64,000 nucleotides of DNA from the NCBI GenBank assembly GCA_049964835.1, contig JBMFWW010000002.1, positions 16,701-80,700 on the forward strand, in the 5' to 3' direction. Every line of letters starts with the position of its first letter. The stretch's first letter is position 1. A program made the translations under genes and the position numbers. Of the stretch, positions 6,207 through 60,851 are shown in pieces. This stretch comes from Candidatus Micrarchaeia archaeon (GTDB lineage: Archaea; Micrarchaeota; Micrarchaeia; Micrarchaeales; CABMGC01). The notes below the pieces were generated by a model. It was not told the origin of the DNA and searched no databases. It was given only the letters and a program-made list of their open reading frames with translations.

Positions 6207-7136
6207 ATGACCTCTAAAAAATCATCTCTCAGAGTAGATTCTGAACAAAAATTAAGTAGCCAGCTACTTCCTAAAAGTTTTTATGATGAACACAAAAATA
6301 AAACCAATGAAGAATTAAATTTATCAATAAAGGCAATAGCAAGAATTTTCAAAAAAGACGATAAAGAAATAATTGCAGCTGTGACTTCTTTGCCGCAGTT
6401 CATCAACAGAAATCATTTAAAAATAATAACCTCTGTAGCTGAAATATACTCGTGTAAAGAAGAAGAAGCAAAAAAAATTATACTTTCACATCCACAATTT
6501 TCTGGTTACTATCATATTAATAAAGTGGAAAAAATTCAAAAATTATACGGAATTGATAAAAATGTATTAAGGAAAATTATTTTATCACTTCCACAATTTA
6601 TTGGTTATGATCATGAATCTGCACTTGCCAATATCTCTGAAATATATAATTTAAATCTTGAAGATGCAAAACGCTTAGTTTTGAAAAATCCGCAATTCTT
6701 AAAGAGAGATCACAAAAAGATTATAAAAAATATAACTGACGTTTATTCCTGTACAGATGAAGAAGCCAAAAAGGCAATTAAAAAATTTCCTCAGTTCGCA
6801 GGTTATAATCATGCAAAGAAAATACGAAGAATTAGTAGAGTAGCACGTTTAATAGGCATAGATGAAAAAGTTGTCAAAGAATTCATAATAAAAAATCCAG
6901 TACTCGCTAGTTATTCTGAAAAAAGGCATATTGCAGCATTAGATAGTTTAAATTTATTTAAACCAATTAAGACAAAGGATTTTGATCCTATAACGATAAT
7001 TAAAAGGTATTCATATCACATATCTAAGTCACCTTATGTTCCTAATACCAAACTTAGAGTGTCAAAGGCAAAGAAGAAGGGCCACGACATAGAACTAACT
7101 CCTTTTTTAAAAGAAATAAGAAAAATAACTGATTAA
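6207..7136 (+). CDS. tandem helical-repeat protein with about 33-aa PQF units (mTERF-like repeat architecture)
   Basis: Five to six consecutive units each begin with P-Q-F or P-V-L: PQFINRNHLKIITSVAEIYSCKEEEAKKIILSH / PQFSGYYHINKVEKIQKLYGIDKNVLRKIILSL / PQFIGYDHESALANISEIYNLNLEDAKRLVLKN / PQFLKRDHKKIIKNITDVYSCTDEEAKKAIKKF / PQFAGYNHAKKIRRISRVARLIGIDEKVVKEFIIKN / PVLASY. The family assignment is tentative. Confidence 0.5.
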   Translation: MTSKKSSLRVDSEQKLSSQLLPKSFYDEHKNKTNEELNLSIKAIARIFKKDDKEIIAAVTSLPQFINRNHLKIITSVAEIYSCKEEEAKKIILSHPQFSGYYHINKVEKIQKLYGIDKNVLRKIILSLPQFIGYDHESALANISEIYNLNLEDAKRLVLKNPQFLKRDHKKIIKNITDVYSCTDEEAKKAIKKFPQFAGYNHAKKIRRISRVARLIGIDEKVVKEFIIKNPVLASYSEKRHIAALDSLNLFKPIKTKDFDPITIIKRYSYHISKSPYVPNTKLRVSKAKKKGHDIELTPFLKEIRKITD

Positions 7137-10290: not shown

Positions 10291-11004
10291 ATGCAGTCCA
10301 ATAATAATGTAATTATAGCTGAGAATATAGGCAAGACTTATGTCTCAAAAAAAATTCAGTATACTGCTCTTAAAGATGTTTCTGTTACAGTACAAAAAGG
10401 GGAGTTTCTAGCTATTTTAGGCGCCTCTGGAAGTGGAAAGACAACCCTTATGAATATACTAGGTACACTAGACAGGCAAACTAAAGGAAGGTTAAGAATA
10501 GATGGTGTAGACACAGAAACATTAAATGATAATGAATTATGTCTTATAAGAAACAAAAAAATAGGCTTCATATTTCAATCATACAATCTTGTAAATTATC
10601 TTTCTGCCTTAGATAATGTACTTCTTCCTCTAATGATATCTAATATAGATACTCCGGAAAAAATAGAGGAGGCAAAACAGCTTCTTTCAGAGCTTGGACT
10701 GTCTGAAAAATATCAAAAAAAACCTCTTGAGTTAAGCGGAGGAGAGCAGCAAAGAGTTGCAATTGCAAGAGCTCTTATAAACTCACCTTCTATAATACTT
10801 GCAGATGAGCCTACTGGAAATCTCGACTCTAAAACTGCAGACACGGTTCTAGATATACTAATGAGAATGGCTAAGAAAAACGATATAACTATAGTTATGG
10901 TAACTCACGATCCAGAAATAGCTAAATCTGCAGACAGAGAGATACACATGAAGGACGGTGTCGTATACAAAGAGCTTAGGAGCTATAATAAAAAAGCAAA
11001 ATAA
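10291..11004 (+). CDS. ABC transporter ATP-binding protein (MacB/LolD/FtsE-like)
   Basis: Walker A is GASGSGKTT, the signature motif is LSGGEQQRVAIARAL, Walker B is IILADEPT, and the H-loop is VTHD. Confidence 0.9.
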   Translation: MQSNNNVIIAENIGKTYVSKKIQYTALKDVSVTVQKGEFLAILGASGSGKTTLMNILGTLDRQTKGRLRIDGVDTETLNDNELCLIRNKKIGFIFQSYNLVNYLSALDNVLLPLMISNIDTPEKIEEAKQLLSELGLSEKYQKKPLELSGGEQQRVAIARALINSPSIILADEPTGNLDSKTADTVLDILMRMAKKNDITIVMVTHDPEIAKSADREIHMKDGVVYKELRSYNKKAK

Positions 11005-11036: not shown

Positions 11037-12707
11037 ATGGGTATAAAAAATATGAGATATGGTCTTGTTTTGCTCGCTGTTAGTTTTATTTTTATGTTCT
11101 TGAACACAAGCTTTGCTTCGCAAGTGCAGTGTAATTTAATTCCTGCTTCTAATTACTTTAAAATTATAGGCGTAACATGGGGCAATGCTACTCATTCAAT
11201 CTCAGCTGGACCTGGAATAAACGATGCACCTCTTACCGTTACGCTTGAAAATTATGGTGGTTCATGCAACTTTATAGATCTAAAAGGATACTTGGAGCTT
11301 TATGGAGGAATATCTGATTTTAACGGTTCATCTTATGCAACTTACTATTTAAACAATCTTGCTCCATACTCTATTTTTAATATGGTCTTTAATCTTAATA
11401 TAGCTAAAAATGTATCTGCAGGCAACAATACCGTTTTATCATATCCTTTTTATATATCCTGGAACTATACTAACGATACAATAAGATCAACTCAAGAGTA
11501 TAACTTAAGCATACCTTTATACGGAAGTCCTGATCTTTCATTCTCAATAAAAAATCAACCTCTTATTGCAGGGGAATTAAATAATGTAACCTTACAAGTA
11601 AAGAATACAGGTTCTGGAAAGGCATCAGATTTATCCTCCGAGATATCTATGTCTGGAGCTAGTATCTTGACACAACCTTCTAAGATAGGCGTAATAGAGC
11701 CTAACACCACAAAAAATATTTCTTTCTATGCATATCTACCTTCAAGTTCTGCAGGACAGCCCGTACTTCTAAATCTTGATTATAACTATATAACACCTTA
11801 TGGCTACAATACGTCTATATCAACTACTGTCGATACATATGCAGTACCAAATTATAATAATGGCGTGTCTATCTCAATATTAAACAATAGCATAGAGTCT
11901 GGCAATATTCGAAATACGAGTATAGTTGCATATGATACCTCTTCATATCCTATAGAAAATCTTACTATAACTCTTACTCCATCAAGCCCTATAACGTTGC
12001 TGGGCTCTGATGGAATAATAAATTTTCCAACTATAAATCCAAATTCAAAGGTCAAAATGCCAATATCATTGTATCTGACACCTTCATCAAGCACTGTGGG
12101 TAGCATCTCCGCATCTGTCTCATATATATTAAACGGACAGCCAGAGAGCACAACTCTTCTGTTAAATGTTCTGACACCTAGCAACATAGAGCTGACAAAT
12201 GTAAATACTGTACTTCTCCCTTCATCCCCCACTGTAGGTTCATCATTTACATTGACCTCAACATTAAACAATATAGGTTCTGAAACGGCTTCTGCAGTAT
12301 CTATAACTCCTGGACATGTAAATGGAATAAGCACGGAAGGTGAAAACACTACTTCTTTAGGAAGTATACCTGTAGATACTCCTACAGCATTTACGTTAAG
12401 CTTTTTGATTTCTCAATCGCTTAAGCCTGGAATATATAATATACCTATAATAGTATCTTATCTAAATAATCTTAATCAACAAATTAACCAAACAATTCTA
12501 TTTCCAGTAAACATCTCAAAAAGCAGCGCCACATTCATAACCAGTTCCGGTGCATATGCTGGAAATGCAACTGCATACCGTAACTTTAAGGGTGGCGGAG
12601 GTATTCCAATAATTTTAATCATAATAATTATTATAATTATTTTGATAATTGCATATTTCTTATATAAGCGAAGAAAAAATAGCAAGAAAACAAAGGCGCA
12701 TCAATGA
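11037..12707 (+). CDS. exported, C-terminally membrane-anchored glycoprotein associated with the ABC/FtsX system (S-layer-domain/CARDB-like)
   Basis: The N-terminal signal sequence is [22 protein letters not shown]. The protein has many N-x-S/T sequons. The C-terminal TM helix [21 protein letters not shown] is followed by a basic tail, [10 protein letters not shown]. The gene overlaps the downstream permease by 4 nt. Confidence 0.6.
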
Positions 12708-14053
12708 AGTTAAAGGATATACTTACTCTTGGAATAAAAGGAGTATCTGAGCGTAAGTTCAGAACTGCCCTTACAGTTCTAAGCGTAGTAATAGGCATTG
12801 CAGCAATAGTGGCCCTTATTTCATTAGTTAGTGGAATTTCAGTAAGCATCTCAAAGTCATTAGAAAGTATAGGTCCTACAACTATTATTCTAACTTCATC
12901 ACCATCGCATATATTTACAAATGCAGATATAGCTGAAATAGAGTCGCTTCCTAATGTAAGTACGGCAATACCTGTTATTAGATTTTCTGCCAATGTAACG
13001 ACTGGCAATACACAGCAAACAGTAACGGTATATGGTGTTTCAAATTCATTTCTTCCCAATGCGCTTGGAAGCATAAATTTATATTCAGGAACTGTCTACA
13101 ATGACTCTACACTTCCTACTGCTTTAGTCGGTTACGATGTTGCATTTCCAACAACTTCTCAAGGTACTTCTTCGGTAAATCTAAATCAACCTGTTTATTT
13201 AACCGAACATGCTCCTAATTCTGGAACAAAAAGCATAACTCTTATACCTGTTGGTATACTTAATCAATATGGCTCTTCATTACTCATATCACCAGATTCA
13301 TCAATATTCATTCCAATACAAAATGCAGTAACAATAACTGGAAAGTATTCATACAATATAATTCTAGTGCAGGCTACCAACGCATCAAGCGTCTCTGCAT
13401 TATCCTCACTTCTTAAAAATATTTATGGAAATGGTGTCGAAATACTTTCTGTACAAGCACTTGCTAGTACGGTTAACTCTATAATAGGCTCAATTGGCGT
13501 TCTTTTGGGTAGTATAGCAGGAATCTCTCTAATAGTTGCTGGCATAAGTATTCTAAGTATAATGATGGTATCTGTTACAGAAAGAACAAGAGAGATAGGA
13601 ATTCTTAAGGCAATCGGCTTCAAGAAAAAAGATGTGCTTATTCTATTCTTATCAGAAGCTCTTATAATAGGGATTTTAGGAGGATTGGTGGGTGTGGGCG
13701 TTGGCGCCGGTGCCTCATACATACTGCCTAGTCTTTTGTCTAGTGGCACTTCAGGTGCACCTTCATCAACATCTGGTTCTAGCATTGCAACCTCTTCAGG
13801 AGGAGGTGGATTCTCAAGAAGCGGCGCAGGCTTTAGTGGAGGAGGAGCAGGTGGCGGAGGTGGTGCAGGAGCCGCTATCGCTAGTTCATCGCCAAGAAGT
13901 TCTGTTTCTAGTAGTTCATTTACTCCTGTGATTACTCCCGAGATAGTTATAATTGCAATATTCATAGCCATTATAGTAAGTCTTTTATCAAGTCTTTATC
14001 CTGCATGGAAAGCTGCAAGTGTAGATCCTGTAAAGGCTATACGCTCTGAGTAA
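12704..14053 (+). CDS. ABC transporter permease, FtsX/MacB family, with a Gly/Ser-rich loop insertion
   Basis: It has the MacB-type topology: an N-terminal TM helix, a large extracytoplasmic domain, and the FtsX signature [19 protein letters not shown]. The C-terminus is [18 protein letters not shown]. An insert of about 70 aa ([14 protein letters not shown]...GGGAGGGGGAGAA...SSS) sits between the last two TM helices. Confidence 0.85.
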
Positions 14054-26273: not shown

Positions 26274-27581
26274 ATGATGGATGATGAAACATTTTTTAAT
26301 TTTGAAGACGAAATACTAAACACATTGGCTACAAAACTTAGCGGTTTTCAAACTGATGAAGATATAAAAAATGTAATATTAAAAACAGCAAGAATAATTG
26401 ATCCTGAGATAACAAATGAAGATTTAGACAGGCTTCAAAAAGATATTAATGATTTTTATCCTATAACCAAATACATAAACAACGACGATGTAGAAGACGT
26501 AATGGTAAACAATACTAAAGACATCTTTGTATATGATAGTGAAAAAGGACCGGTAATGGTTCCTGAAAGAGTTGAAGACAAAAGAAAGTTAGAACGTCTT
26601 GTGAAAAAGTTTAAGATGTACGCAACTGTTGTATCTGCTAATAAGAACATATACGATGTTCATCTACCAAACAAATCAAGAGTAAATATTGTGGAGTCAC
26701 CACTAGGCGCAGATATAACAATACGAAACTTCAGGCAAAAAGCGCTTAGCGCAATAGATTTAATAAACATGGGTGAAATGAGCTATAATATGGCAGGAAG
26801 GTTTTGGCTATACTCTGAAGGACTTAAGATAAGACCTGCAAATATGTTGATTGGGGGAATGCCTGCAGCTGGTAAAACAACACTTTTAAATTCGATGTTT
26901 AGTTTTTTCAGACCAGAACAAAGAATAATTACAATAGAAGATACATACGAGCTTAATACTGAAACACAAGACAACTGTGTTAGGTTAGAAACAAGCTCAG
27001 AGGTATCCTTAGAAGAGCTAGTTCAAAATGCATTGAGAATGAGGCCAGATTTATTAATAGTTGGAGAAGTAAGAGGAAAAGAAGCAAAGGACATGATGAC
27101 AGCAATGAATATAGGTAAGATTTCAATGAGTACAATACACGCAAGCACAGCCAGAGATATAATAACAAGACTTGAACATACTCCTATGAATGTTGAAAAG
27201 GATATTATTCCATTAATAGATGCTCTTGTTCTAGTATCACAAATTAATATAGATGGAAAGTTTGTAAGGAAAATAACACAAATATCTGAAATTTCTGGAA
27301 TAGAAACGCAGGTTTTGCTTTCTGATTTGTATAAATACGATTATAAAACAAGAAAGGGTTCGGACATACTTCCTAGTGTTACCTACAGGGATACACTTGC
27401 AAGTCTTACTGGGTTGCCACCAAGTGAGATAGTGCGCGAGGAGAGAAGAAGAGCAAAGATTCTTGAAGCAATGAACAAAAAAGGCATAAGGGGCTTAAGA
27501 GATATAAATGAGGTTTGCAGAGAGTATTACGACAATCCTAATCGAGTATTAGCTAAACTTGAGATAGCAGACTCGGTTTAG
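26274..27581 (+). CDS. type II/IV secretion-system ATPase (archaeal PilB/ArlI/VirB11 family)
   Basis: Walker A is GGMPAAGKTTLLNS, Walker B is PDLLIVGEVRG, and the His box is MSTIHAS. Confidence 0.8.
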   Translation: MMDDETFFNFEDEILNTLATKLSGFQTDEDIKNVILKTARIIDPEITNEDLDRLQKDINDFYPITKYINNDDVEDVMVNNTKDIFVYDSEKGPVMVPERVEDKRKLERLVKKFKMYATVVSANKNIYDVHLPNKSRVNIVESPLGADITIRNFRQKALSAIDLINMGEMSYNMAGRFWLYSEGLKIRPANMLIGGMPAAGKTTLLNSMFSFFRPEQRIITIEDTYELNTETQDNCVRLETSSEVSLEELVQNALRMRPDLLIVGEVRGKEAKDMMTAMNIGKISMSTIHASTARDIITRLEHTPMNVEKDIIPLIDALVLVSQINIDGKFVRKITQISEISGIETQVLLSDLYKYDYKTRKGSDILPSVTYRDTLASLTGLPPSEIVREERRRAKILEAMNKKGIRGLRDINEVCREYYDNPNRVLAKLEIADSV

Positions 27582-30962: not shown

Positions 30963-31655
30963 ATGACAAAGCAATTAATATCAATAATAATACCAACATT
31001 GAACGAAGAAAAAAATATTTCAAAATTGCTTCCTAAAATTCCTGTAATATTAAATGATTTAAAGAATACAGATTACGAAATAATAATTGTAGACGGTGAA
31101 TCTTCCGACAAGACAGTTGAAATTGCAAAGTCATTTGGCGGAAAAATAGTCTATGACCATAAGGGAAAAGGTTCTGCTTTAAGAAAGGGATTTGAAAAGG
31201 CAAATGGTGACATATTAATATCGATGGATGCAGATCTTTCTAATGATCCTAAGGAATTAAAGTTAATTATAGATAGCATTAACATAGGTTACGATATAAG
31301 TATGGGTTCTAGGTTTATTACTGGCGGCGGTACAGATGATATGCCAATATTAAGGAAAATAGGAAATCGTTTTTTTGTTTTCTTGGTAAATATATTTTTT
31401 AAGTCTAATTACTCTGATTTATGCTATGGCTATCGTGGTTTTAGAAAAAATGTGATAAAAAAACTAAATTTAAAAGAAGACAGATTTGCAATAGAAACCG
31501 AAATAAGTATTAAAGCAGCAAAAAAACACTTAAAGGTAATAGAAATCCCAAGTGTAGAAAAAAAGAGGAGTTCTGGTTCTGGAAAATTAAGAACATTCTA
31601 TGACGGATACAATATACTAAAGACTATATTAAAGAATATTTTTATTAGCCGATAA
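30963..31655 (+). CDS. family 2 glycosyltransferase (dolichyl-phosphate hexose synthase-like)
   Basis: ISIIIPTLNEE, IIIVDGESSDKT and the DxD-type motif MDADLSNDP are present. Confidence 0.85.
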   Translation: MTKQLISIIIPTLNEEKNISKLLPKIPVILNDLKNTDYEIIIVDGESSDKTVEIAKSFGGKIVYDHKGKGSALRKGFEKANGDILISMDADLSNDPKELKLIIDSINIGYDISMGSRFITGGGTDDMPILRKIGNRFFVFLVNIFFKSNYSDLCYGYRGFRKNVIKKLNLKEDRFAIETEISIKAAKKHLKVIEIPSVEKKRSSGSGKLRTFYDGYNILKTILKNIFISR

Positions 31656-31698
31656 GAAAAGTATTTAAATATTATTATTTAATTATAAATCGTATAAG

Positions 31699-34600
31699 AT
31701 GGGCAAAATTATAAAGTTAAATCATAAATCAAATAAAAAAAAAGTAAAAGAGCAATCAGCAATAGAGTATGTAATGAGTTATTCTTGGGCAGTAATAATA
31801 TTGCTTGCTGTTGTAATAATCTACTTTTTTGCCAATAGTAACCAAACTACATATACTCCAACTTCTTGTTATATATCCCCGCAATTACCCTGTTACCAAT
31901 TAATAATAGGTTCTAACTCTATAGAAACTACAGCAAAACTCGTATTTACAAATGATCTTAATAAGCCAATATACTTTTATTCACAACCATTTTCAATAAA
32001 ATTCACTCCATCTTCCAACTATTACTCTGGTACCTGTGTACCAACTACAGCTAATGAGGGTTCAAATGTAACTTGCACTGTAGTAGCAAGTGGTTATTCA
32101 ATCTTACAAGGTAGTGAAGCAGAACCGACATTTTATTTATCATATGCAGAGTGTGTATCTCAAAACTGTAATATTAATCAAAGACAGTTAATAACTCTGA
32201 CAACATCTGGTAGCGGCACATCATATATATACAATCTTTCAGGCAATTTTATAGTTCCACAACCAGTTTTTACTAATTATTTTTATCTTGTTACAAATTC
32301 ATTCCCATCTATTGGTGGGAGTACCTCTCCAGGATATGGTGTTTACGCGCAGGGAACAAATGTAATTATCTCCGAATCTCCATCTTCTGGGTATACTTTC
32401 AGTGATTGGACCTGTTCTGGAACTGGCTGTTATTCCGGCACAAGTCCCTCTGAAAAAATAACTATAAATTCAAATACTATAGAAACGGCTAGTTTCCAGC
32501 AAATACCTATTTATACACTAACTACAAATGCAGTACCATCGGGATCTGGAAGTGTTTCTCCAACATCTGGTTCTTATGAACAAGGATCACAAGTTACTAT
32601 TTTGGCATCTGCAAATCCCGGTTACACATTTAATGGTTGGACCTGTTCTGGAACTGGCTGTTATTCTGGCACTTCACCATCAAATACAATAACAATAACT
32701 TCAAATACAGTTGAAACTGCAAATTATAAATTTAATACTGGTTACTTTGGCTATGTCCCACCATTTAACGGCGAATCAAATCAAACTTATTTGTATTCAT
32801 CACCTTATGCTTACTACTCCCATGCTCCACAACAGATAACTTTGTGGAGTGATCTATTCCATAATCTTGTGCTAAACAACTTAAATACGCCATCATCAAC
32901 ATCAACTATACTTAATTTGATTGGAACTGTAAACAATGGTTATTTATATGAATTAGCATTGGGAGAACCTGCTGACACATACTATCCAGAAATCACTATA
33001 ATAAACACCTCTAAAAATTCAGTACAAAAAACAATATTTATTCAAAATGCCACAGTTGCAAATGAAATAACAACATCACAAGATACTTTATTTGCAAATG
33101 TTAATTCTACTGGTTCTTTATACATATTATCTTCAAAATCAGCCGGATCTCTTTCGCAAGTATCACTTATTGTAGCAAATACTTCCTTACTTAATGATGC
33201 GATGCAATCAAGTAATCTATTCTATAACATTACAAAAATCACATCAATTAATTTGTCTAATACCACATATGATGGAAATATAGTATTTCCAGAAGAATTT
33301 ACAAATTATCCTATCTCTAGCTTCTTAATGCTTGGCAATTACGCATATATAGCTAATCAATCTACCCTGTATATACTTAATACCTCAAAATCAAATGTTG
33401 TTGCTAATTCTATGATAATATATCCTAAAAATAAGGTTGAAACTGGAGCATTAGATTCAGGAATTATAAATATGCAAACTAGTGGAAATTATGTTTATTT
33501 TGATATCAGCAATACAACAGTTTCAAGTAGCACTAATTATAATACAGTAATTAGCGTACTTAATACAACATCTTTAAAAGTAACAAACATCACCATAGTT
33601 AATTCACCAAATAATTATACTGTCGGCGCAGTTATAAGTAATCATTTCAAAAAATTATACATTCTATTATCAAATCAAACTTTATACACTATTGACTTGA
33701 GCAGCAATGGACTAGGAACAGTTTCTAGAATACAAGATTTTGCAACAACAACTCCATTTCCTAGTACAACTTCTACATTAGAAAGCTCTCTCGGATCAGA
33801 ATACAATATGTTATTAAGTGCCAATGGTACAGAGTTGTATGTAGGTACTACGTATTCTAATGGGTATAATGGTTATGCAATATATAATCTTGTAACTGGA
33901 ACTGAAGTAGGATTTATGGGTACGCTCAATGCAGTAAGGGTTGTAGCCCCACAAAATAATTATAATATATATACAACTGCTAGTCAAAATCAAGCTATTG
34001 AAGATTATGCTACTTTAGGTGGTATAGTTGGAGTTTATAGCAGTGCATATAATATAAATAAAGAAAACATAACAATTCCTTCAAATTTTATAGCCACTGC
34101 TTTGTTATTTGATGGAAATATTTTAAGAATAGGCGGTTATAACTATAGTGACAATTCATTAACTCAAGATGAAGGTTTATTAACAACGGCAAATGTAATG
34201 ACAGATACAATGAATTCAAATGTTATATCTCCAGAAGCTGAAATTAGTTATTTTGCAAATACCGGTTATCCAATGACTCCTACTCAAACTATAATGCACA
34301 TGCCTTCTATAATGGATTTCTCAGAGCCCACGGGTCAGTTCTTTTCTATACCTGCTTTGCTTGGTGGAACATCTAATTTATTCCTTATACAACAAGCATC
34401 TCAAGTATTTCCAACTAATGAAGTTTTAGATGGACTTGCTGCTGTTTCAAGTAATACTCAAGCATCTGATTGTGTTTCTTCTTCAGAATGTATTAGTAGC
34501 GGTAGTTATCTTACTGCATATAGTAATATTGATGCATACAGTTCATACGCTACTCCTTCTGGCGTTGCGTGTGTTGCAGAAGCAAATTATGGTATTGCAT

Positions 34601-35529
34601 CAACGGCAACAGTTAACTTATACGGAATGATAGAAAATGCAAATAATCTGTTAGTTATGTCTTATCAAGAAAATAAACCAAGTACTCAAGATTTTTCAAG
34701 TATATATACTGCCCCTACTCCTGGCGGAATGGGTGCTAATGCAGCTTCAGCATACTTTAATTATTGGTTAAATGATACAATCGCATCTCAATACGCTATT
34801 GCTGACTCTCAAACCATTACGCAAATTGCTGCAGGAACTGGAGATGCAGGTGGTTTTGGCTGTTCAAATCCTCCAAATCCAAATGAATTTATAACAGATA
34901 CCTATTGGACAATGACTCAGAGTGCATTGGAAAGTCAAGCGTTATCAAATTCAATAGTTATGTTACCACCAGCAATATTAGCAAATAATACAAATAATGT
35001 TTATATGTTCAACATAGCAGCATCGAATGGTGGGCTGGCCGTTTATAATATAGCTACGAGCACATACTCTGAGATACCATTACCAAAGTTTTCATCAACA
35101 GCTTATGTTTATCCTAATGATCAAATTCCATCTTTGGCAGAAACAACAAATGGTACCTTTGTATTTGCCGGTTACCAACCATTTTCTGGATATTGTGCTA
35201 TTGCAGTAATAAATACACAATTAGAAAAGGTTGTAAAGGTAAATTATGGACTTCCAGTAGGTTCTTGTGAAGGGGATACTATAGTAACTCCTGATGGAAA
35301 ATACTTATATAGTGGTATCGCAGAAGGTCTTAATAGCGAATATGTATTTAGTGTTCATGATCTTATAACTTACAACTCTTCAGAAATAAATTATACCGGT
35401 TCTCTTTATAACTATTCAATAGCTAATATTGGAACTATGACTATGCCTATTACTTATGGAATATATGCTCCTCAAATGAACTACTATCAAGGCATTGCAA
35501 TATCAACAGATACGCAGCCTATACCGTGA
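31699..35529 (+). CDS. giant (1276 aa) surface protein with an archaeal class III (type IV pilin-like) signal peptide
   Basis: The N-terminus is basic leader KKKVKEQSAIEYVMSYSWAVIILLAVVIIYFF (QSAIEY motif plus hydrophobic helix). Then come two tandem units of about 70 aa containing GYTF(S/N)(D/G)WTCSGTGCYSGTSPS, resembling InlB B-repeat/Listeria-Bacteroides repeats. The remainder is a long N-x-S/T-rich region with beta-propeller-like strings (SANGTELYVGT, TPDGKYLYSG, KKLYILLSNQTLYTIDL). Confidence 0.6.
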   Translation: MGKIIKLNHKSNKKKVKEQSAIEYVMSYSWAVIILLAVVIIYFFANSNQTTYTPTSCYISPQLPCYQLIIGSNSIETTAKLVFTNDLNKPIYFYSQPFSIKFTPSSNYYSGTCVPTTANEGSNVTCTVVASGYSILQGSEAEPTFYLSYAECVSQNCNINQRQLITLTTSGSGTSYIYNLSGNFIVPQPVFTNYFYLVTNSFPSIGGSTSPGYGVYAQGTNVIISESPSSGYTFSDWTCSGTGCYSGTSPSEKITINSNTIETASFQQIPIYTLTTNAVPSGSGSVSPTSGSYEQGSQVTILASANPGYTFNGWTCSGTGCYSGTSPSNTITITSNTVETANYKFNTGYFGYVPPFNGESNQTYLYSSPYAYYSHAPQQITLWSDLFHNLVLNNLNTPSSTSTILNLIGTVNNGYLYELALGEPADTYYPEITIINTSKNSVQKTIFIQNATVANEITTSQDTLFANVNSTGSLYILSSKSAGSLSQVSLIVANTSLLNDAMQSSNLFYNITKITSINLSNTTYDGNIVFPEEFTNYPISSFLMLGNYAYIANQSTLYILNTSKSNVVANSMIIYPKNKVETGALDSGIINMQTSGNYVYFDISNTTVSSSTNYNTVISVLNTTSLKVTNITIVNSPNNYTVGAVISNHFKKLYILLSNQTLYTIDLSSNGLGTVSRIQDFATTTPFPSTTSTLESSLGSEYNMLLSANGTELYVGTTYSNGYNGYAIYNLVTGTEVGFMGTLNAVRVVAPQNNYNIYTTASQNQAIEDYATLGGIVGVYSSAYNINKENITIPSNFIATALLFDGNILRIGGYNYSDNSLTQDEGLLTTANVMTDTMNSNVISPEAEISYFANTGYPMTPTQTIMHMPSIMDFSEPTGQFFSIPALLGGTSNLFLIQQASQVFPTNEVLDGLAAVSSNTQASDCVSSSECISSGSYLTAYSNIDAYSSYATPSGVACVAEANYGIASTATVNLYGMIENANNLLVMSYQENKPSTQDFSSIYTAPTPGGMGANAASAYFNYWLNDTIASQYAIADSQTITQIAAGTGDAGGFGCSNPPNPNEFITDTYWTMTQSALESQALSNSIVMLPPAILANNTNNVYMFNIAASNGGLAVYNIATSTYSEIPLPKFSSTAYVYPNDQIPSLAETTNGTFVFAGYQPFSGYCAIAVINTQLEKVVKVNYGLPVGSCEGDTIVTPDGKYLYSGIAEGLNSEYVFSVHDLITYNSSEINYTGSLYNYSIANIGTMTMPITYGIYAPQMNYYQGIAISTDTQPIP
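32284..32727 (+). repeat. internal tandem duplication (2 units of about 70 codons) within the giant surface protein gene
   Basis: The units span roughly aa 196-266 and aa 272-343. They share a 30-nt identical core, TTGGACCTGTTCTGGAACTGGCTGTTATTC, at 32406-32435 and 32637-32666. Confidence 0.8.
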
Positions 35530-36233
35530 TTTTTATGGACGATACAAATTATAATAATAACAATAGCAACATCAATAATGGAGTTATGTCAAATACAATA
35601 AAACCTGAACGCAGATTTAAATATACAAATTTGGCTTTAATGTTAATAGTTATCTTAGCACTTATAGCATATATAATAATAACAAATATACTAAACAATC
35701 AAAGTATTCCGACAAATATGCAATTAAGTAGTTCTTATACAGCAAATGCAAATCAAATAAGTTACATAACAAAATCTCAACTATTAAGTATTTTTGGAAA
35801 TGAAACATATAACGCAATGGTTCTTAATAAAAATACTGCATTTCACTATATTTATATACTACAAACACAGTTTCATATCGATATACCTTTTAATGGGTTT
35901 GTAAATGGCACATCAACAAACTATTTCGGTAAGATTACCTTTAATGAATTACAGTTCATATTTAATAAAACACAGAATACTACTTATTCTAATATACTTT
36001 CACAAATAAAATCAACATATACAACTTCAATAATAAACACTTCAATTTATAATAGAATAACTTATACGACAATATATCCAAAAACTATACTTTCAACAAA
36101 TGAGTTTATAATTTTGGAATACTATAAAAATACAATATTATTCTCTTATACTATCTCTAATTATTCAACAACTCAGTTTAATGCATTACTGCCAAAACTT
36201 CTTTCATATTCTAGCAAACAGATATTTGATTAA
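35526..36233 (+). CDS. hypothetical single-pass membrane protein (Asn-rich N-terminus, extracellular N-x-S/T-rich domain)
   Basis: The GTG start overlaps the stop of the giant gene, and an alternative ATG lies at 35535. The TM helix is LALMLIVILALIAYIIITNIL. I recognise no family. Confidence 0.5.
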   Translation: MIFMDDTNYNNNNSNINNGVMSNTIKPERRFKYTNLALMLIVILALIAYIIITNILNNQSIPTNMQLSSSYTANANQISYITKSQLLSIFGNETYNAMVLNKNTAFHYIYILQTQFHIDIPFNGFVNGTSTNYFGKITFNELQFIFNKTQNTTYSNILSQIKSTYTTSIINTSIYNRITYTTIYPKTILSTNEFIILEYYKNTILFSYTISNYSTTQFNALLPKLLSYSSKQIFD

Positions 36234-43375: not shown

Positions 43376-43491
43376 TGCCAAACGGTCATAGTAGCAGGGA
43401 AACGCCCGAACCCATTCCGAACTCGGAAGCTAAGCTTGCTAACGATATGAAATACTGCTGTAATAGTGGGAAAGCATATTGCTGTTTGGCA
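43376..43491 (+). rRNA. 5S ribosomal RNA (solitary)
   Basis: The terminal helix is TGCCAAAC...GTTTGGCA. The core GGTCATAGTAGCAGGGAAACGCCCGAACCCATTCCGAACTCGGAAGCTAAGC closely matches archaeal (Thermoplasma-type) 5S. No other rRNA gene is adjacent. Confidence 0.85.
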
Positions 43492-47479: not shown

Positions 47480-48966
47480 ATTCCAGTCGATGCTGCTGGA
47501 GGACACTGCTATCAGATTTCGACAGCCATGCAAGTCAACATTCTCACTTGAGAGTGTGGCGTACGGCTCAGTAACGCGTGGTCAATCTACCGTAGAGAAG
47601 GGCATAACCTTGGGAAACTGAGGCTAATATCATATAGTTTAAGACACCTGGAAGGAGTTTTAAACTAAAGGGTTGCGAATTGGAGCATTACCGCTCTACG
47701 ATGAGACTGCGTCGGATCAGGCAGATGGCGGGGTAACGGCCCACCATACCTTTGACCCGTAGGGGATATGTGAGTATGAGCCCCGAGAAGGGCACTGAGA
47801 CAAGGGCCCTAGCGCTACGGCGTGCAGCAGGCGCGCAAACTCCACAATGCGCGAAAGCGTGATGGGGGGAGTCTGAGTGGTAGGTTTTTAACTTACCTTT
47901 TGCCAAGTTTAGCAAGCTTGGAGAATAAGTGCTGGGTAAGACCGGTGGCAGCCGCCACGGTAATACCGGCGGCACGAGTGGTGTTCACTATTATTGGGCT
48001 TAAAGCGTCCGTAGCTGGCTGAAACAGTCTTATGTGAAATATAGGTGCTTAACATCTATACGTGCATAAGATACCTTTCGGCTAGGGAGTGGGAGAGGTC
48101 AAGAGTACTTATGGGGTAGGGGTTAAATCCTGTAATCCTATAAGGACTACCTGTGGCGAAGGCGCTTGACCAGAACACATCCGACAGTGAGTGACGAAGG
48201 CTAGGAGAACGAATCGGATTAGATACCCGAGTAGCCCTAGCAGTAAATTATGCAGACATTGGTGTTGCATTTATCTTGAATAAGTGCAGTACCGTAGGAA
48301 AACTGTTAAGTCTGCCGCCTGGGGAGTACGGCCGCAAGGTTGAAACTTAAAGCAATTGGCGGGGGAGCACACAAGGGGTGGATGCTACGGTTTAATTGAA
48401 TTCAACGTCGGAAATATCACCTGGAGCGACGGCAGTGTGAAGGCCAGACTAAAGATCTTGCCTGACAAGCCGAGAGGTGTTGCATGGCGATCGTCAGTTC
48501 GTGGTGTGAACTATCCGGTTAAGTCCGGTAACGAACGAGATCCTCACTAACAGTTGCAACTAATACAGTTGTGTATTGGGCACTCTGTTAGTACCGCCTG
48601 CGTTTAAGCAGGAGGAAGGAGAGGGCCACGGTACGTCAGTATAGCCCGAACCTCCAGGGCTACACGCGGCATACAAAGGTTGGTACAATGGGCTGCCACT
48701 CAGAAATGAGGAGCTAATCCCCTAAAACCAATCTAAGTTCGGATTGAGGGTTGAAACTCACCCTCATGAAGTTGGAATCCCTAGTAATCGCTTGTCACTA
48801 TCGAGCGGTGAATATGTCCCCGCTCCTTGCACACACCGCCTACCAAGTCATCCAAGTGAGGTCTTAGTGATACAGCATCGTAATAGATACTGTTGAACTA
48901 AGGTTTCGTGAGGGGGGCTAAGGTATAACAAGGTATCCGTAGGGGAACCTGCGGATAGATCACCTC
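47480..48966 (+). rRNA. 16S ribosomal RNA (solitary, no linked 23S or spacer tRNA)
   Basis: The 5' end ATTCCAGTCGATGCTGCTGGAGGACACTGCTATCAG compares with the archaeal ATTCCGGTTGATCCTGCCGGAGG. The 530-loop GTGGCAGCCGCCACGGTAATAC is present. The 3' end is GTAGGGGAACCTGCGGATAGATCACCTC. The length is about 1487 nt. Confidence 0.95.
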
Positions 48967-49020
48967 GAAACTTTTTAAGAAGGTTTCAAGCTACTTAATA
49001 TTTAGTGTGCGTAAAATTAG

Positions 49021-52374: not shown

Positions 52375-53448
52375 ATGGCTAAGAAAAATATGAATAATAA
52401 AAAAAGCGAGCCCAATCTCATAATAAAACCTATAGGTAAGTTGGGCGGCTTAGACGGAATACATGTACTTTTAATATTGCTACTTATTGTGGCGCTAGCA
52501 TTACTTTTATACACATCTTACGCTAAGCAGTCAATATTGATAATAACAAATCAGAGTACAAATCAAACATTTAATAATACGCAGTGTCAATATGGAGTTT
52601 ATAAAAATTCATGCGTAACTCCAGTTCACAATGCTACTCAAATCAAAAAAATATTTGAAAATCTTTTGGCAAGTTATACAACAGTAAACAATCAAGACTC
52701 TTTAATTCCATTTATTTCAAATACTTCACAAATAAAAGAGTATTATTCTCCATTAACTAAGACTTGGGTAGTTACAGTTATAGATAAGGATATACTAACA
52801 AATAGTACCTTCTTATTCTCTGCAATAATAAATGACACAAATACTAGTAAGATAATACCTTCGATACAGACAGTACTCCCATCCCTTAAATCAAAGAATC
52901 TAGTTACAGGTAATGGTTATATTGATTTAACAAATAAAACATCATGCATAACTGAAAATACAACACCTGTCTATTGGTTTATAGATCCATACTCTCCTGG
53001 AAGTATAAATAGTCTTTCTTACTATGAACAAATACAAAAATCATTCAACAAGAGCATATCGCCTGATTTATACATACTTTATACACAGTACTCTCAAGAA
53101 ATTGCGAATGAGTATGGATTACATAATGCAACTATGATGGGCAAGTATTTATTCTGTGCTTCAAAGCAGCCGAACTTTGATGAATTTGCAAGCACATTAA
53201 ATTCAAGTTATCAAAATTTATACATATCAACATCTGAACTTAATTCCATAGCAAAGAACTCAGACCTAAACATAACACAGCTTTCTTCGTGCATTTCAAC
53301 TGCAGGAACAGCTATAAATAGGCAAGCTATTGTAGCAAATTACTACAATGTAACAGCCAGTCCTTTTGTTGTAATAGGTTGCAAGTATCAGACCATACCT
53401 CAGATGGCATATCAAGCAATATGCAGCATTAAAAACTACACTTGCTGA
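52375..53448 (+). CDS. membrane-anchored extracellular protein with a C-terminal DsbA/thioredoxin-like domain lacking the CxxC motif
   Basis: The N-terminal basic stretch is followed by the TM helix HVLLILLLIVALALLLY. The C-terminal half aligns by eye to the DsbA-like (Thioredoxin_4) pattern: VYWFIDPYSPGSINSL occupies the position of the usual D..CP.C motif, ...LFCASKQPNFDEF... follows, and SPFVVIGCK corresponds to TPtf.inGk. Confidence 0.5.
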   Translation: MAKKNMNNKKSEPNLIIKPIGKLGGLDGIHVLLILLLIVALALLLYTSYAKQSILIITNQSTNQTFNNTQCQYGVYKNSCVTPVHNATQIKKIFENLLASYTTVNNQDSLIPFISNTSQIKEYYSPLTKTWVVTVIDKDILTNSTFLFSAIINDTNTSKIIPSIQTVLPSLKSKNLVTGNGYIDLTNKTSCITENTTPVYWFIDPYSPGSINSLSYYEQIQKSFNKSISPDLYILYTQYSQEIANEYGLHNATMMGKYLFCASKQPNFDEFASTLNSSYQNLYISTSELNSIAKNSDLNITQLSSCISTAGTAINRQAIVANYYNVTASPFVVIGCKYQTIPQMAYQAICSIKNYTC

Positions 53449-53531: not shown

Positions 53532-55040
53532 ATGTTAAAGCTACAAAGTGCAATTGAATATTTAATTACGTACGGCTGGGCAATTCTTATAATAGCTATT
53601 GTGCTTGTTACATTATTCGAGCTTGGATTATTTACACCTAAACCAATAAAGCAATGTGTTATCGAAGCTGGGTTTTCTTGCAGTAATTATTATCTAAATT
53701 CGCAAGGAGTTCTTACATTTACATTAAAACAACAAACATCTAATCCTGTAAATATTACAGGAATAGCATGCTATGAAAATGGGACATTACTTTCAGGACA
53801 GGCGCCATATAATCCTCCTACAAATGAAGTTTTCATGCCAGTAGGTACATCTTATACATTCTATGCACAATGTTACTCTAGTAATACAATACCATTTTCT
53901 GGAAATATAGGTGATTATTTTACTGGATCAGTAGCTATTTATTATAAAGATGCAATAACTCATCTTACTGAGTTAGCAGTTGGCTCATTAACAGTTCCAG
54001 TAAGTACAGATACGCCTACATTATTAAGTGCAAATCCAGATACTGAAAATTCAATAAAGATAACTATAATAAATATTGCTTCTAATACCGTTCCACAGAA
54101 CTTCCAGCAAGAACTTTCCATCAATCCAAGTGCATTTGCACAGTACGGACTAAATCAAAATATGAGCAATCTCATATTCACAACAGGAGCATACGGCAGC
54201 GGAAGTCCAATAGATGCTTGGATAGAAAGCGGCGCGAGCAACACCGCAACAAACTCTATAATATGGTTAAATTTACCAAGTAGTATTTCACCTAATGGAG
54301 GAACAGAAACTGTATATATGAGTTTTCTTACAGATAACACTCCCGTCGCTTCGGGCTACACTGGTTATGCTCCACAATTATACTGTGCGTCTGGATGTTT
54401 TCAAACAACTTATGCAGAATATGATAATGGAAATAATGTGTTTCCTGTTTATTTCAATGCAAATACATTATTATCTAGATTTACAACATATGATGTCGGA
54501 ACCTTGTCACAAACTACACTTAATGGAGAACCAGTAATATCTATTGTAGGAGATTCAATTTTTGGTTATGGGTGGGCTGGTTTTTCAAATCCAATTCCTT
54601 CTTCATTCATAATAGACGGATGGATATATACAACACAATCGTCAGATATTGTTGGTTTTACATCACAAGCATCAACTTTAGGAAATGGCTATTTATTTGG
54701 TGCAGGAACTGGCGCAGGAGATACATATGTTAGTATTTCAAAAATGACATCAGGTTCAGTTTCTAATTTGGCAAATTCAGGTCCAGAAAATGCAAATAAT
54801 TGGGAATATGTACAAATTAGTTATAATAATGGGGCTATGAATATGCAAGGAGGAACATCCCCTTCAAATTTCTTATACAGCATAAGTGCTACAGATACCT
54901 CTTATACTTCAGGTTATGTAGGAATAGCTGAATCAGGTAACACTGGAAATAATTATTATCGTTATATGTTTGTTCGTGCCTACCCGCCAGAAGGAAAGAT
55001 GCCAATAGTTTCATGCAGCGTAGGTATATGCAACAACTGA
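53532..55040 (+). CDS. class III signal peptide (type IV pilin-like) surface protein with a DUF2341-like central domain, paralogue A
   Basis: The N-terminus is MLKLQSAIEYLITYGWAILIIAIVLVTLF. The central segment NLIFTTGAYGSGSPIDAWIESGASNTATNSIIWLNLPSSISPNGGTETVYMSF fits the DUF2341 pattern (DirF...L.ywiE.w....a.vWVkvp.i.a.....iymyy). Conserved Cys pairs are present, and the C-terminus is VSCSVGICNN. Confidence 0.6.
   Translation: MLKLQSAIEYLITYGWAILIIAIVLVTLFELGLFTPKPIKQCVIEAGFSCSNYYLNSQGVLTFTLKQQTSNPVNITGIACYENGTLLSGQAPYNPPTNEVFMPVGTSYTFYAQCYSSNTIPFSGNIGDYFTGSVAIYYKDAITHLTELAVGSLTVPVSTDTPTLLSANPDTENSIKITIINIASNTVPQNFQQELSINPSAFAQYGLNQNMSNLIFTTGAYGSGSPIDAWIESGASNTATNSIIWLNLPSSISPNGGTETVYMSFLTDNTPVASGYTGYAPQLYCASGCFQTTYAEYDNGNNVFPVYFNANTLLSRFTTYDVGTLSQTTLNGEPVISIVGDSIFGYGWAGFSNPIPSSFIIDGWIYTTQSSDIVGFTSQASTLGNGYLFGAGTGAGDTYVSISKMTSGSVSNLANSGPENANNWEYVQISYNNGAMNMQGGTSPSNFLYSISATDTSYTSGYVGIAESGNTGNNYYRYMFVRAYPPEGKMPIVSCSVGICNN
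54120..54252. repeat. inverted repeat tract 1, copy A (133 nt, 1 mismatch to 60043-60176)
   Basis: I hand-aligned this against the reverse complement of 60043-60176. The only difference is ATA versus ATC in ...GTCCAAT(A/C)GATGC.... Identity drops abruptly on both sides. Confidence 0.9.
54354..54430. repeat. inverted repeat tract 2, copy A (77 nt, 2 mismatches to 59866-59942)
   Basis: The sequence is GGCTACACTGGTTATGCTCC(A/G)CAATTATACTG(T/C)GCGTCTGGATGTTTTCAAACAACTTATGCAGAATATGATAATGG. Confidence 0.9.
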
Positions 55041-59392: not shown

Positions 59393-60790
59393 TCAATTAC
59401 AGCTTCCTATACTACATGAAACTGAAGGTATCTGCCCGTTTACCGGGTAATCTGCCAATGCTAGATAACTTACTGTAAAGTAGACGTACGTATTTATAGA
59501 ATTTGCATTTAAGCTGTCTATAGTATAAAGAAACATATCATTGTTGGGTGCTAGTGACATCATTTGTAATTGACCTTTACTAACCCCTGGATCAGGACTA
59601 CAATAATAACCTGTAGTTAACCAGCACCAGATCACTCCTCCAGGACCTGAAACCATAGGTACATAAGAAAGTAGAATTCCGTTGCTTGTATCTATATTGC
59701 TGTTTATCGATAGCAAACCTTCATACTGGTTATTACCACACCCTATTGTATTCATTGTATAACCATTATCTATAGTAAGTCCAGAAGAGCACGCTTGTGG
59801 GTTACTAAATATATTGCTTAGTTGGGTTCCTTTAAAGTCGCTATAAAGATTAAACAACTGCGCCCCATTATCATATTCTGCATAAGTTGTTTGAAAACAT
59901 CCAGACGCGCAGTATAATTGCGGAGCATAACCAGTGTAGCCTAATGAAACTGGTTCGTTGCTAGAGACAATATTCATATAGATATTTTCTTTCCCGTTAT
60001 TTGCATTTATTCCGGAAGGAAGTTTAACCCAAATTGTAGATGTTGTTGCGGTGTTGCTCGCGCCGCTTTCTATCCAAGCATCGATTGGACTTCCGCTGCC
60101 GTATGCTCCTGTTGTGAATATGAGATTGCTCATATTTTGATTTAGTCCGTACTGTGCAAATGCACTTGGATTGATGCTTATTTCTTGTTGAAATCCAGAT
60201 GGCACTGGCATATTTTGTGAGTTTGTTATAGTCAACTGATCAGAAAATTCGACACCAACCTGCGCTGGATTTACTCCTCCAGTTTCTGTTGGTTTTATAG
60301 ATACGGTACCCTCTAACTCTCCAGCAATTCCATTTTTAGGGTTTACATAGGTTACAGACAATTCACCAGAAAAGTAGCCGCCAAAACTGCTATTATACAT
60401 TTTATTGTTTGCATAACATTGTGTATAAAAGCTACCAGAACCGTCAGGGGATAAATAAAATTGACCCAAACTTGTACCCGGCTTTTGGTAATTAATTGTG
60501 TTTGTACTTTCATAACATGCTATTCCTGTAACATTTATTGGCTGATTACCACTGTTTAACAATGTTAACATAAGTATTCCATTTGTATTCATTACATAAC
60601 TTTGGCAAACTACCCCATTATTTAATAAACATTGATTTATAGGTCCTGGAGAAAAAACACCAAGAAGATAAAGTCCAAAGAGAGCTATTGCTATTATTAA
60701 CAATGCCCATCCATGAGTAATCAAGTACTCCACTGTACTTTGTAGTTTAACTGTATTTTTAACACTTTTAACTTTAAAAATTCCGGCCAT
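59393..60790 (-). CDS. class III signal peptide (type IV pilin-like) surface protein with a DUF2341-like central domain, paralogue B
   Basis: I place the start at the internal ATG (60790; MAGIFKVKSVKNTVKLQSTVEYLITHGWALLIIAIALFGL). The longer track ORF would overlap the divergent gene at 60852. The protein shares 100 percent identical segments with paralogue A: SINPSAFAQYGLNQNMSNLIFTTGAYGSGSPIDAWIESGASNTAT and GYTGYAPQLYCASGCFQTTYAEYDNG. The C-terminus is VSCSIGSCN. Confidence 0.6.
   Translation of the reverse strand: MAGIFKVKSVKNTVKLQSTVEYLITHGWALLIIAIALFGLYLLGVFSPGPINQCLLNNGVVCQSYVMNTNGILMLTLLNSGNQPINVTGIACYESTNTINYQKPGTSLGQFYLSPDGSGSFYTQCYANNKMYNSSFGGYFSGELSVTYVNPKNGIAGELEGTVSIKPTETGGVNPAQVGVEFSDQLTITNSQNMPVPSGFQQEISINPSAFAQYGLNQNMSNLIFTTGAYGSGSPIDAWIESGASNTATTSTIWVKLPSGINANNGKENIYMNIVSSNEPVSLGYTGYAPQLYCASGCFQTTYAEYDNGAQLFNLYSDFKGTQLSNIFSNPQACSSGLTIDNGYTMNTIGCGNNQYEGLLSINSNIDTSNGILLSYVPMVSGPGGVIWCWLTTGYYCSPDPGVSKGQLQMMSLAPNNDMFLYTIDSLNANSINTYVYFTVSYLALADYPVNGQIPSVSCSIGSCN
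59866..59942. repeat. inverted repeat tract 2, copy B
   Basis: This is the reverse complement of 54354-54430, with 2 mismatches. Confidence 0.9.
60043..60176. repeat. inverted repeat tract 1, copy B
   Basis: This is the reverse complement of 54120-54252, with 1 mismatch. Confidence 0.9.
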
Positions 60791-60851
60791 TTTGTTGTCA
60801 ATACCATTATTAATAGAAAAGAATTTAAATATTTGTTGTAAATAGTAATTT

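Follow-up and report, generated by a model that had tools for sequence, protein, structure and literature searches.

A giant InlB B-repeat protein of a Micrarchaeia archaeon, with a pilin-like N-terminus and a co-encoded membrane partner

Micrarchaeota need physical contact with host archaea, and the locus described here raises the question of what kind of surface protein such an archaeon builds on an N-terminus that looks like that of a type IV pilin. The locus lies in a 64-kb stretch of DNA from Candidatus Micrarchaeia archaeon (the whole stretch analyzed, hereafter the window), where a single open reading frame (ORF; 31699..35529, +) codes for 1276 amino acids (aa) and is followed by a gene for a small membrane protein. 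We regard it as probable, judging from sequence and structure prediction, that this giant gene encodes a lineage-specific, exported and membrane-tethered modular surface protein of Micrarchaeia with a dedicated membrane partner encoded beside it. The architecture predicted as most likely consists of a pilin-sized N-terminal module (aa 1 to ~178), two InlB B-repeat spacers and a ~930-residue head that carries propeller blades.

The ORF had been predicted in an annotation made from the DNA letters only (hereafter the first-pass annotation), and it is real, as an identical 1276-aa protein is present in NCBI, on a 92-kb contig, under the name 'MAG: InlB B-repeat-containing protein [Candidatus Micrarchaeia archaeon]'. 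The DPANN-like nature then ascribed to the organism agrees with its identity as Candidatus Micrarchaeia, with the gene content of the window and with the lone archaeal 16S gene therein. The sole hydrophobic segment of the giant protein spans aa 20-50, so that ~1230 residues are predicted to be extracellular, in line with the ~1200 suggested previously. The composition is of the extracellular type (2.5% Lys+Arg; Ser/Thr/Asn-rich), and 13 of the 16 Cys residues are invariant in the five-sequence family alignment, mostly as conserved near-neighbour pairs. On the other hand, the supposed richness in N-glycosylation sequons does not hold, as the 27 N-x-S/T sequons observed are no excess over the 28 +/- 4.5 found in composition shuffles.

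At the N-terminus, a Lys-rich leader of 18 residues (MGKIIKLNHKSNKKKVKE; aa 1-18, 31699..31752, +) ends with Lys at position -2 and Glu at position -1. It is followed by the motif QSAIEY (Gln at +1, Glu at +5, Tyr at +6) and a hydrophobic helix of ~25 residues (aa 19-46 with the motif; 31753..31836, +), and the AlphaFold2 (AF2) prediction likewise places a helix at aa 21-46. When the six frames of the window were searched with the pattern Q-[SGAT]-[AST]-[IVLMT]-E-[YFL], exactly three N-terminal motif sites were found, namely at 31753 (+), 53544 (+) and 60742 (-). All of them open large ORFs, with K-x before the motif and a strongly hydrophobic stretch after it. Besides the giant gene, these ORFs encode a 502-aa protein of the DUF2341 family (53532..55040, +; MLKL before QSAIEYLITYGWAILII) and a 465-aa protein with a DUF2341 match (59393..60790, -; KL before QSTVEYLITHGWALLII). 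The signature QS[AT][IV]EY is thus common to the giant protein and the two DUF2341-like proteins, as had been proposed. The two latter proteins are 40% identical to each other overall, and the window DUF2341 paralogue P0113 matches PF10102 with 27.5 bits (cutoff 23.4), while no PF10102 homology was found in the body of the giant protein. Similarity between the giant protein and the DUF2341-type proteins of the window is confined to aa 16-43 (BLASTP E 7e-7). Homology of the bodies was considered and rejected, the part shared with P0112 being aa 16-43 only.

The FlaFind rule for class III signals demands [GA] at -1. Class III signals place the cleavage motif ahead of the hydrophobic domain, with a charged residue at -2 and a small one at -1, and their processing reportedly needs G/A/S at the latter position (PMC4371748). 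The giant protein shows the motif ahead of the hydrophobic stretch, the short charged leader and Lys (K17) at -2, as well as the Gln at +1 (Q19) and Glu at +5 (E23) that mark EppA-type (DUF361) signals; its -1 residue is Glu instead of G/A/S. K17, Q19, E23 and the Tyr at +6 are invariant across the giant-protein family, while the -1 residue within the orthologue set is E (the window protein), Q, Q, Q, A and S; the two paralogues of the window have L there. Altogether, these sequence features support the reading of the N-terminus as one of the type IV pilin or class III type rather than as an ordinary signal peptide. The prepilin-like signal claimed in the first-pass annotation therefore stands as to the position of the motif and the residues at -2, +1, +5 and +6, but not as to the residue at -1 or to a match with any curated model. 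As the -1 residue is Glu, cleavage of the giant protein by a prepilin peptidase is doubtful; either the peptidase tolerates large residues at -1, or some members of the family may have become uncleaved signal-anchors.

The signature is not restricted to the window. Among 217 proteins collected, 91, from Micrarchaeota and allied archaea, carried it before a hydrophobic stretch; Gln at +1 and Glu at +5 were set by the search pattern, and the flanking positions were left free. Membership of an N-terminus is defined here by motif statistics alone. Lys or Arg was found at -2 in 81 of the 91 proteins (89%), and Tyr at +6 equally in 81 (89%). The -1 position was occupied by A (38), L (19), S (19), G (7), Q (6), E (1) and I (1), amounting to A/S/G in 64 of 91 (70%). 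The shortest leaders have three residues, as in MKA before QSAMEY. This set matches the EppA subgroup of class III signals, the hallmarks of which are Gln(+1) and Glu(+5) (PMC3875500), with a Flp-like Tyr at +6 in addition. The signature proteins range from 294 to 1795 aa, so the size of the giant protein, which had been regarded as unusual for a pilin stem, is not unique: the same signature is found on 1630- and 1795-aa proteins, and there is also a 1466-aa protein combining PF07790 and PF18998.

Signature genes can also be found beside a prepilin peptidase gene. At locus L008 (9025-12661), two of them adjoin a gene for Peptidase_A24 (PF01478, 27.9 bits against a cutoff of 26.5; GAGD motif). 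We sampled 34 species representatives of Micrarchaeota that encode a homologue of this peptidase (L009-L042), and in 10 of them a signature gene lay no more than 3 kb from the A24 peptidase gene. Within +/-8 kb of the peptidase there were 16 signature genes, 13 of them within 3 kb. Lys or Arg occupied -2 in 15 of these 16, and the -1 residues (A5, S4, N3, Q2, L2) commonly included non-small ones. The clustering of peptidase and signature genes gives moderate support only, because the related genomes are not independent, and it is the positional clustering alone that is notable; the overall density of signature genes near the peptidase, 0.034 per kb, is no higher than that in the window. One of these loci, L023, has a base composition like that of the window (GC 0.30, tetranucleotide r 0.96). 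Mia14, a cultured relative, is reported to possess two type IV pilus systems, one belonging to the Methanococci group, together with a single FlaK-like peptidase and LamG-like proteins that are linked to the pilus loci (PMC5498576).

Behind the helix, an Ig (immunoglobulin)-like beta-sandwich base domain was predicted at aa ~50-175 (31846..32223, +), with AF2 scores in the predicted local distance difference test (pLDDT) of 62-81 and three conserved Cys pairs (57/65, 113/126 and 152/157). The AF2 model of aa 1-350 (pLDDT 56) shows the helix and the beta-sandwich, followed by a pair of small beta domains that correspond to the InlB repeats. The segment of aa 12-178 recurs elsewhere: it shares 49% identity (E 1e-42) with the N-terminal part of another protein in L004, at least 756 aa long, and 28% identity (E 9e-10) with that of P0023, a 1795-aa protein. 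The former is encoded directly downstream of the orthologous gene pair (L003 7015-8094 / L004 5748-8015) and is a further signature protein (KL before QSAIEYMSSYSWALII), whose body differs from that of the giant protein. Judging from these alignments, aa 12-178 (helix plus Ig-like sandwich) is a pilin-sized module common to large proteins with different bodies; ordinary archaeal pilins are 130-170 aa in length (PMC3875500).

The two InlB B-repeats (PF18998) follow at aa ~196-272 (32284..32514, +) and aa ~273-349 (32515..32745, +). The tandem duplication noticed previously, with 30 identical nucleotides (nt) in each copy, was recovered at 32292-32494 and 32523-32725, with 70% nt identity at 231-nt spacing. 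The identical 30-nt run occupies 32406-32435, and at the protein level the two copies share 58% identity. Two stretches match the divergent InlB B-repeat model PF18998 (77.5 bits against a cutoff of 23.6, E 7.8e-22), and TIGR02543 is matched with 37 bits (cutoff 20.95). What had been described as duplicated Cys-motif repeats is thus not novel, being two copies of a known PF18998 / TIGR02543 repeat. The copy number differs among the orthologues, with three copies in P0002-P0005 and one in the most distant orthologue, P0117.

The remaining ~930 aa, the body, are a sequence orphan: an exhaustive HMMER scan of 1.84 billion representative proteins found six clusters, two of them fragments. From the AF2 model of the body we used only the fold class of the better-predicted segment. 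An all-beta region with approximately six blade-like repeats was indicated by AF2 (pLDDT 50-76) and Foldseek at aa ~410-740 (32926..33918, +). The top Foldseek matches in the PDB for aa ~410-685 (pLDDT 50-76) are all 7-bladed propellers, with E values of 1e-6 to 1e-7 and target-normalized template modelling scores (TM-scores) of up to 0.58. The central ~355 aa (aa ~741-1095; 33919..34983, +) have no assigned fold, with pLDDT below 30 and no Pfam match; this part carries the conserved motifs APQNNYNIYT, GGYN, YPMTP, CxAEANYG, PGGMGA and AGTGDAG and the conserved Cys residues 925, 931 and 958. Blade-like repeats with the motif sPDGKYLY appear again at the C-terminus (aa ~1096-1260; 34984..35478, +; AF2 pLDDT 50-70). 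When the family profile was compared with the PDB, its C-terminal part weakly matched the lactonase-type propellers 3fgb_A (E 0.02) and 4qrj_A, the latter being found by Foldseek as well. Iterative blade hidden Markov models (HMMs), run with lax thresholds, connect aa 414-450, 546-578, 592-637, 709-736, 1096-1123, 1150-1195 and 1214-1256. No Pfam propeller, PKD, CARDB or LamG model matches the giant protein. The beta-propeller-like strings seen in the first-pass annotation thus find a counterpart in the AF2/Foldseek results, the PDB profile match and the lax internal-repeat HMMs, but not in a Pfam propeller match. These results are suggestive of propeller blades at both ends of the body, flanking a well-conserved centre of ~355 aa.

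The partner gene (35535..36233, +) encodes 232 aa, with an Asn-rich N-terminus predicted to be cytoplasmic, one transmembrane (TM) helix (aa 33-53; nt 35631-35693) and a predicted external domain of ~180 aa. It had been described as starting at a GTG codon at 35526, which overlaps the TGA of the giant gene at 35527-35529. An ATG at 35535, 5 nt past the TGA, is annotated as the start by NCBI, and at the orthologous junction in L003 (acgTGAttttATGgaa, against ccgTGAtttttATGgac in the window) the ATG is in the frame of the partner while the GTG is out of frame. The GTG was therefore rejected, and the ATG is more likely the start on this comparison. The giant gene and the partner gene still clearly form one unit, for which a TATA-like box (tatttaaata; 31662..31671, +), recognized by eye 28-37 nt before the ATG of the giant gene, is a candidate promoter of its own.

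A small partner gene was found directly downstream of the giant gene in all five lineages (L001/L002, L003/L004, L005, L006), which bears out the expectation that the pairing would be conserved in related genomes. In the other lineages, too, the partner has a single TM helix, which separates a short cytoplasmic N-terminus from a ~170-aa external domain. The partners are highly divergent (21-30% identity); a profile of four of them retrieved the L006 partner, with an E value of 8e-7, as its sole further match among 379 ORFs. By this profile criterion, the divergent partners are homologous to one another. As all the other neighbours in L006 differ (a tRNA synthetase and a V-type ATPase operon), the pairing of giant and partner is not mere inherited synteny. 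The partner profile retrieved only its own orthologues from 5.8 billion proteins, and the partner family was not found beside the other giant signature proteins in L007 and L008, nor beside the unrelated giant P0023. The earlier claim of a coupled small membrane protein thus holds for a single-pass protein conserved in five lineages, but the overlapping GTG is probably not its start.

The giant gene is surrounded by a phosphoglycerate-mutase-like gene, a GT2 glycosyltransferase gene, the partner gene, an NAD kinase gene and genes of a 2-oxoacid dehydrogenase complex. The glycosyltransferase is encoded directly upstream (30963..31655, +), its best NCBIfam match, below cutoff, being AglJ / dolichyl-phosphate hexose transferase. 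An AglJ-like GT2 gene occupies the same position in four of the five lineages, which fits the giant protein being a putative glycoprotein. A FlaI/PilB-type secretion ATPase (26274..27581, +; PF00437 E 8e-37; NCBIfam FlaI E 3e-57, below cutoff) is encoded 4 kb upstream, five genes away and in a separate transcription unit. It is an orphan between succinate dehydrogenase and proline dehydrogenase, a position kept in L001, and no platform or pilin gene adjoins it.

How might a membrane-tethered surface protein of this architecture work? The Sec system would insert it, with the basic leader staying inside the cell and the N-terminal helix keeping the protein in the membrane. Its Cys-paired, probably glycosylated ectodomain would extend through the space beneath the surface layer (S-layer), and the Ig-like domain and the InlB repeats would act as a stalk across this space, which measured 20-25 nm in a relative (bioRxiv 10.1101/2021.04.28.441871). 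The propeller-containing head could conceivably bind an external ligand, for instance a component of the host or matrix surface, and the co-transcribed single-pass partner could, equally conjecturally, form a membrane-proximal complex as an anchor, a dock or an assembly factor. For the wider signature family, it may be possible that an A24 peptidase cleaves the leader and that the protein is mounted on a type IV filament machinery; for the window protein this would be doubtful. A putative role in host attachment or adhesion is plausible for a Micrarchaeon.

Several observations weigh against this reading, including its pilin-like part. The window protein has Glu at -1, the sole such case among the 91 signature proteins. 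Neither the isolated N-termini nor their profile match PF04021, PF07790, any NCBIfam archaellin or pilin model or any PDB model at E values of up to 10, a negative that is weak because the filters of HMMER serve short hydrophobic queries poorly. With the base domain, Foldseek returned generic Ig-like sandwiches only, and no match to the pilin fold. Neither an A24 peptidase gene nor a platform gene (FlaJ/PilC) is present in the 64-kb window, and the giant gene does not stand in a type IV filament cluster (no operon of ATPase, platform and pilin genes there). As for the body, the AF2 model, built on a 6-sequence alignment, has a mean pLDDT of 41, with the central ~360 residues unmodelled.

Most of these points bear also on the possibility that the giant protein is a genuine type IV pilin-like subunit. 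Its leader would be removed before Gln19 by an A24 peptidase that, in Micrarchaeota, would accept non-small residues at -1. A machinery of the FlaI/FlaJ type would build the helix into a short fibre, where the protein would be a tip subunit, a minor subunit or part of an assembly resembling the bindosome and would display its head of 1200 residues. We regard this as unlikely, albeit to be taken seriously. In its favor, K(-2), Q(+1), E(+5) and Y(+6) do not vary across the family, the canonical -1 residues A and S are found in some orthologues, signature genes are clustered around those for Peptidase_A24, and the pilin-sized module is common to different passenger bodies. There is also a precedent in the bindosome proteins and in the large adhesins of archaeal type IV filament systems (PMC4371748; bioRxiv 10.64898/2026.04.22.720090). 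L, Q or N occupies -1 in about 30-45% of the signature proteins, including ones adjoining the peptidase gene; as such non-small residues also occur on signature genes beside the peptidase, relaxed specificity at -1 rather than decay is suggested. Nevertheless, Glu(-1) occurs on the window copy alone, no type IV filament locus adjoins the gene and the orphan ATPase, 4 kb off, belongs to another unit, the N-terminus has no profile or fold match to pilins, and the steric fit of a ~130-kDa passenger into a filament is uncertain. A bolder version would have Micrarchaeota expand the Gln+1/Glu+5/Tyr+6 pilin module into a general mount for giant passengers, processed by an A24 peptidase of relaxed specificity (A, S and G, and also L, Q, N and E at -1). 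The giant protein and its partner would then be a fibre-tip or bindosome-like host-contact device mediating the filamentous connections between Micrarchaeota and Thermoplasmatales seen by cryo-electron tomography; we consider this scenario improbable.

Two further interpretations leave the pilin question aside. By analogy with SlaA and SlaB of Sulfolobales, the giant protein could be a large glycosylated outer protein held by a small anchored partner, as a part or a decoration of the S-layer. The tandem pair of a large and a small gene kept across lineages, the adjoining glycosylation gene and the typically extracellular composition with few basic residues and abundant Ser, Thr and Asn are in its favor. 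However, the S-layer protein of Micrarchaeota that has been found experimentally carries PF05123-type domains (bioRxiv 10.1101/2021.04.28.441871), of which none was found in the giant protein. The giant family occurs in a handful of lineages, whereas homologues of the S-layer protein are reported phylum-wide, and the giant protein has a membrane helix of its own. We therefore take such an envelope pair to be very improbable. The identity of the giant protein with the S-layer protein itself (SLP_Mh type, PF05123 / TIGR01564) was rejected separately, as no such Pfam or NCBIfam match was detected in the protein or its orthologues. Also very improbable, and in our estimate the least probable of all, is a surface-tethered enzyme with a lactonase-, lyase- or hydrolase-like propeller head that would scavenge host-derived substrates instead of acting as an adhesin. 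This idea draws on the weak profile and fold likeness to propellers of the lactonase and polysaccharide-lyase types (3fgb, 4qrj, 6byp) and on the strongly conserved motifs in the body centre. The matches to enzyme propellers are at the level of the fold only (9-13% identity, best E 0.02), no catalytic family was matched in Pfam or NCBIfam, and propellers are generic scaffolds.

The favored reading, a tethered modular surface protein, can be set against known systems. The bacterial Flp/Tad pilins share Glu at +5 and Tyr at +6 (the 'Flp motif') with the giant protein, but they are ~50-80 aa long, are cut after Gly and have no passenger domains, and the giant protein is archaeal. In modular type IV pilins such as PilB and PilC of Streptococcus sanguinis, functional modules are grafted onto a pilin module; the giant protein resembles them in combining a pilin module with a passenger, although its passenger of ~1100 aa is much larger. 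InlB B-repeat (PF18998 / TIGR02543) surface proteins share with it the two clear repeat copies on which the NCBI name is based, but the repeat makes up 12% of the giant protein, and the 100-odd other database matches share nothing beyond it.

The Epd pilins of Methanococcus maripaludis (EppA-dependent, DUF361 / PF04021) are like the giant protein in the short basic leader and in the cleavage motif ahead of the hydrophobic stretch, and also share with it a basic -2 residue, Gln(+1) and Glu(+5) (PMC3875500, PMC4371748); Micrarchaeota reportedly have a type IV pilus system belonging to the Methanococci group (PMC5498576). The Epd pilins differ in being 67-299 aa long with a leader ending in Gly (or Ala), against 1276 aa and Glu(-1); the Tyr at +6 of the giant protein is absent from the Epd pilins, and PF04021 does not match the giant protein. 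The bindosome proteins of Sulfolobales (GlcS, AraS and TreS) also bear a large non-pilin ectodomain on a pilin-type N-terminus. They are encoded apart from the machinery and thought to be mounted by a system derived from type IV filaments (PMC4371748; bioRxiv 10.64898/2026.04.22.720090). In contrast to the giant protein, they are substrate-binding proteins of ABC (ATP-binding cassette) transporters with canonical K/R-G/A sites and demonstrated cleavage by PibD; the giant protein has no substrate-binding-protein domain, no neighbouring ABC transporter gene and a non-canonical -1 residue, and it has a dedicated small partner. Archaeal type IV filament loci encode large adhesin-like, Ig-rich or PilY-like proteins (bioRxiv 10.64898/2026.04.22.720090), unlike which the giant protein is encoded outside such a locus. 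With the YVTN/lactonase-type surface proteins of Mia14, it would share propeller-type blades in a strain-specific giant surface protein (PMC5498576), and its signature recurs on the DUF2341 proteins of the window, comparable to the LamG/DUF2341 proteins tied to type IV pilus loci (PMC5498576). Nevertheless, no Pfam propeller, PKD, CARDB or LamG model matches it, and its body family amounts to six representative clusters.

The general kind of protein has already been described, as large non-pilin class III proteins and archaeal filament adhesins (PMC4371748; bioRxiv 10.64898/2026.04.22.720090) and as propeller and LamG proteins of Micrarchaeota (PMC5498576). New are the orphan body family of ~930 aa, its exclusive partner and the shared pilin-sized base module, as well as a Micrarchaeota signature that is covered by no curated model and often has non-canonical residues at -1. 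The gene pair is a concrete candidate for a host-contact protein, and co-cultures of Micrarchaeum and Thermoplasmatales exist. The signature family, with ~90 proteins of up to 1795 aa and roughly one third non-canonical residues at -1, is possibly more useful than the single gene. It bears on the choice of substrates by archaeal prepilin peptidases and on the number of surface proteins overlooked by screens of the FlaFind type and those based on Pfam.

Several other features of the window were recorded. The two DUF2341 genes (53532-55040, +, and 59393-60790, -) share a block of ~130 nt with one mismatch (aa FQQE...ASNTAT), and a second near-identical block of ~75 nt is also common to them; this pattern suggests gene conversion between inverted copies ~5 kb apart. 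Directly upstream of the first of these genes, a 357-aa membrane-anchored protein (52375-53448, +) with 8 Cys residues, 16 sequons and no Pfam match is encoded, which may be another surface or partner protein. A 638-aa protein (60852-62768, +) with a Lon_C (S16) protease domain also has a hydrophobic segment at its N-terminus, a TM helix at its C-terminus and 29 sequons, and is apparently an extracellular membrane-anchored Lon-like protease; the 5' end of its gene overlaps a spurious 5' extension of the ORF at 59393-60997. Another surface protein, of 556 aa with CARDB and a C-terminal TM anchor, is encoded within 11037-14053 (+). Its gene apparently shares an operon with those for an ABC ATPase (10291-11004) and for an FtsX-like permease (12704-14053), the latter containing a long insert rich in Gly and Ser. 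There is no linkage among the rRNA genes, as the 16S rRNA gene (47480-48968, +) stands alone with no 23S beside it and the 5S gene (43378-43490, +) lies 4 kb off. The mTERF family is mostly eukaryotic and organellar. A 309-aa protein of the window (6207-7136, +) matches the Pfam model mTERF PF02536 (E 2e-12, 47 bits against a cutoff of 23.1), which is unexpected in Micrarchaeia.

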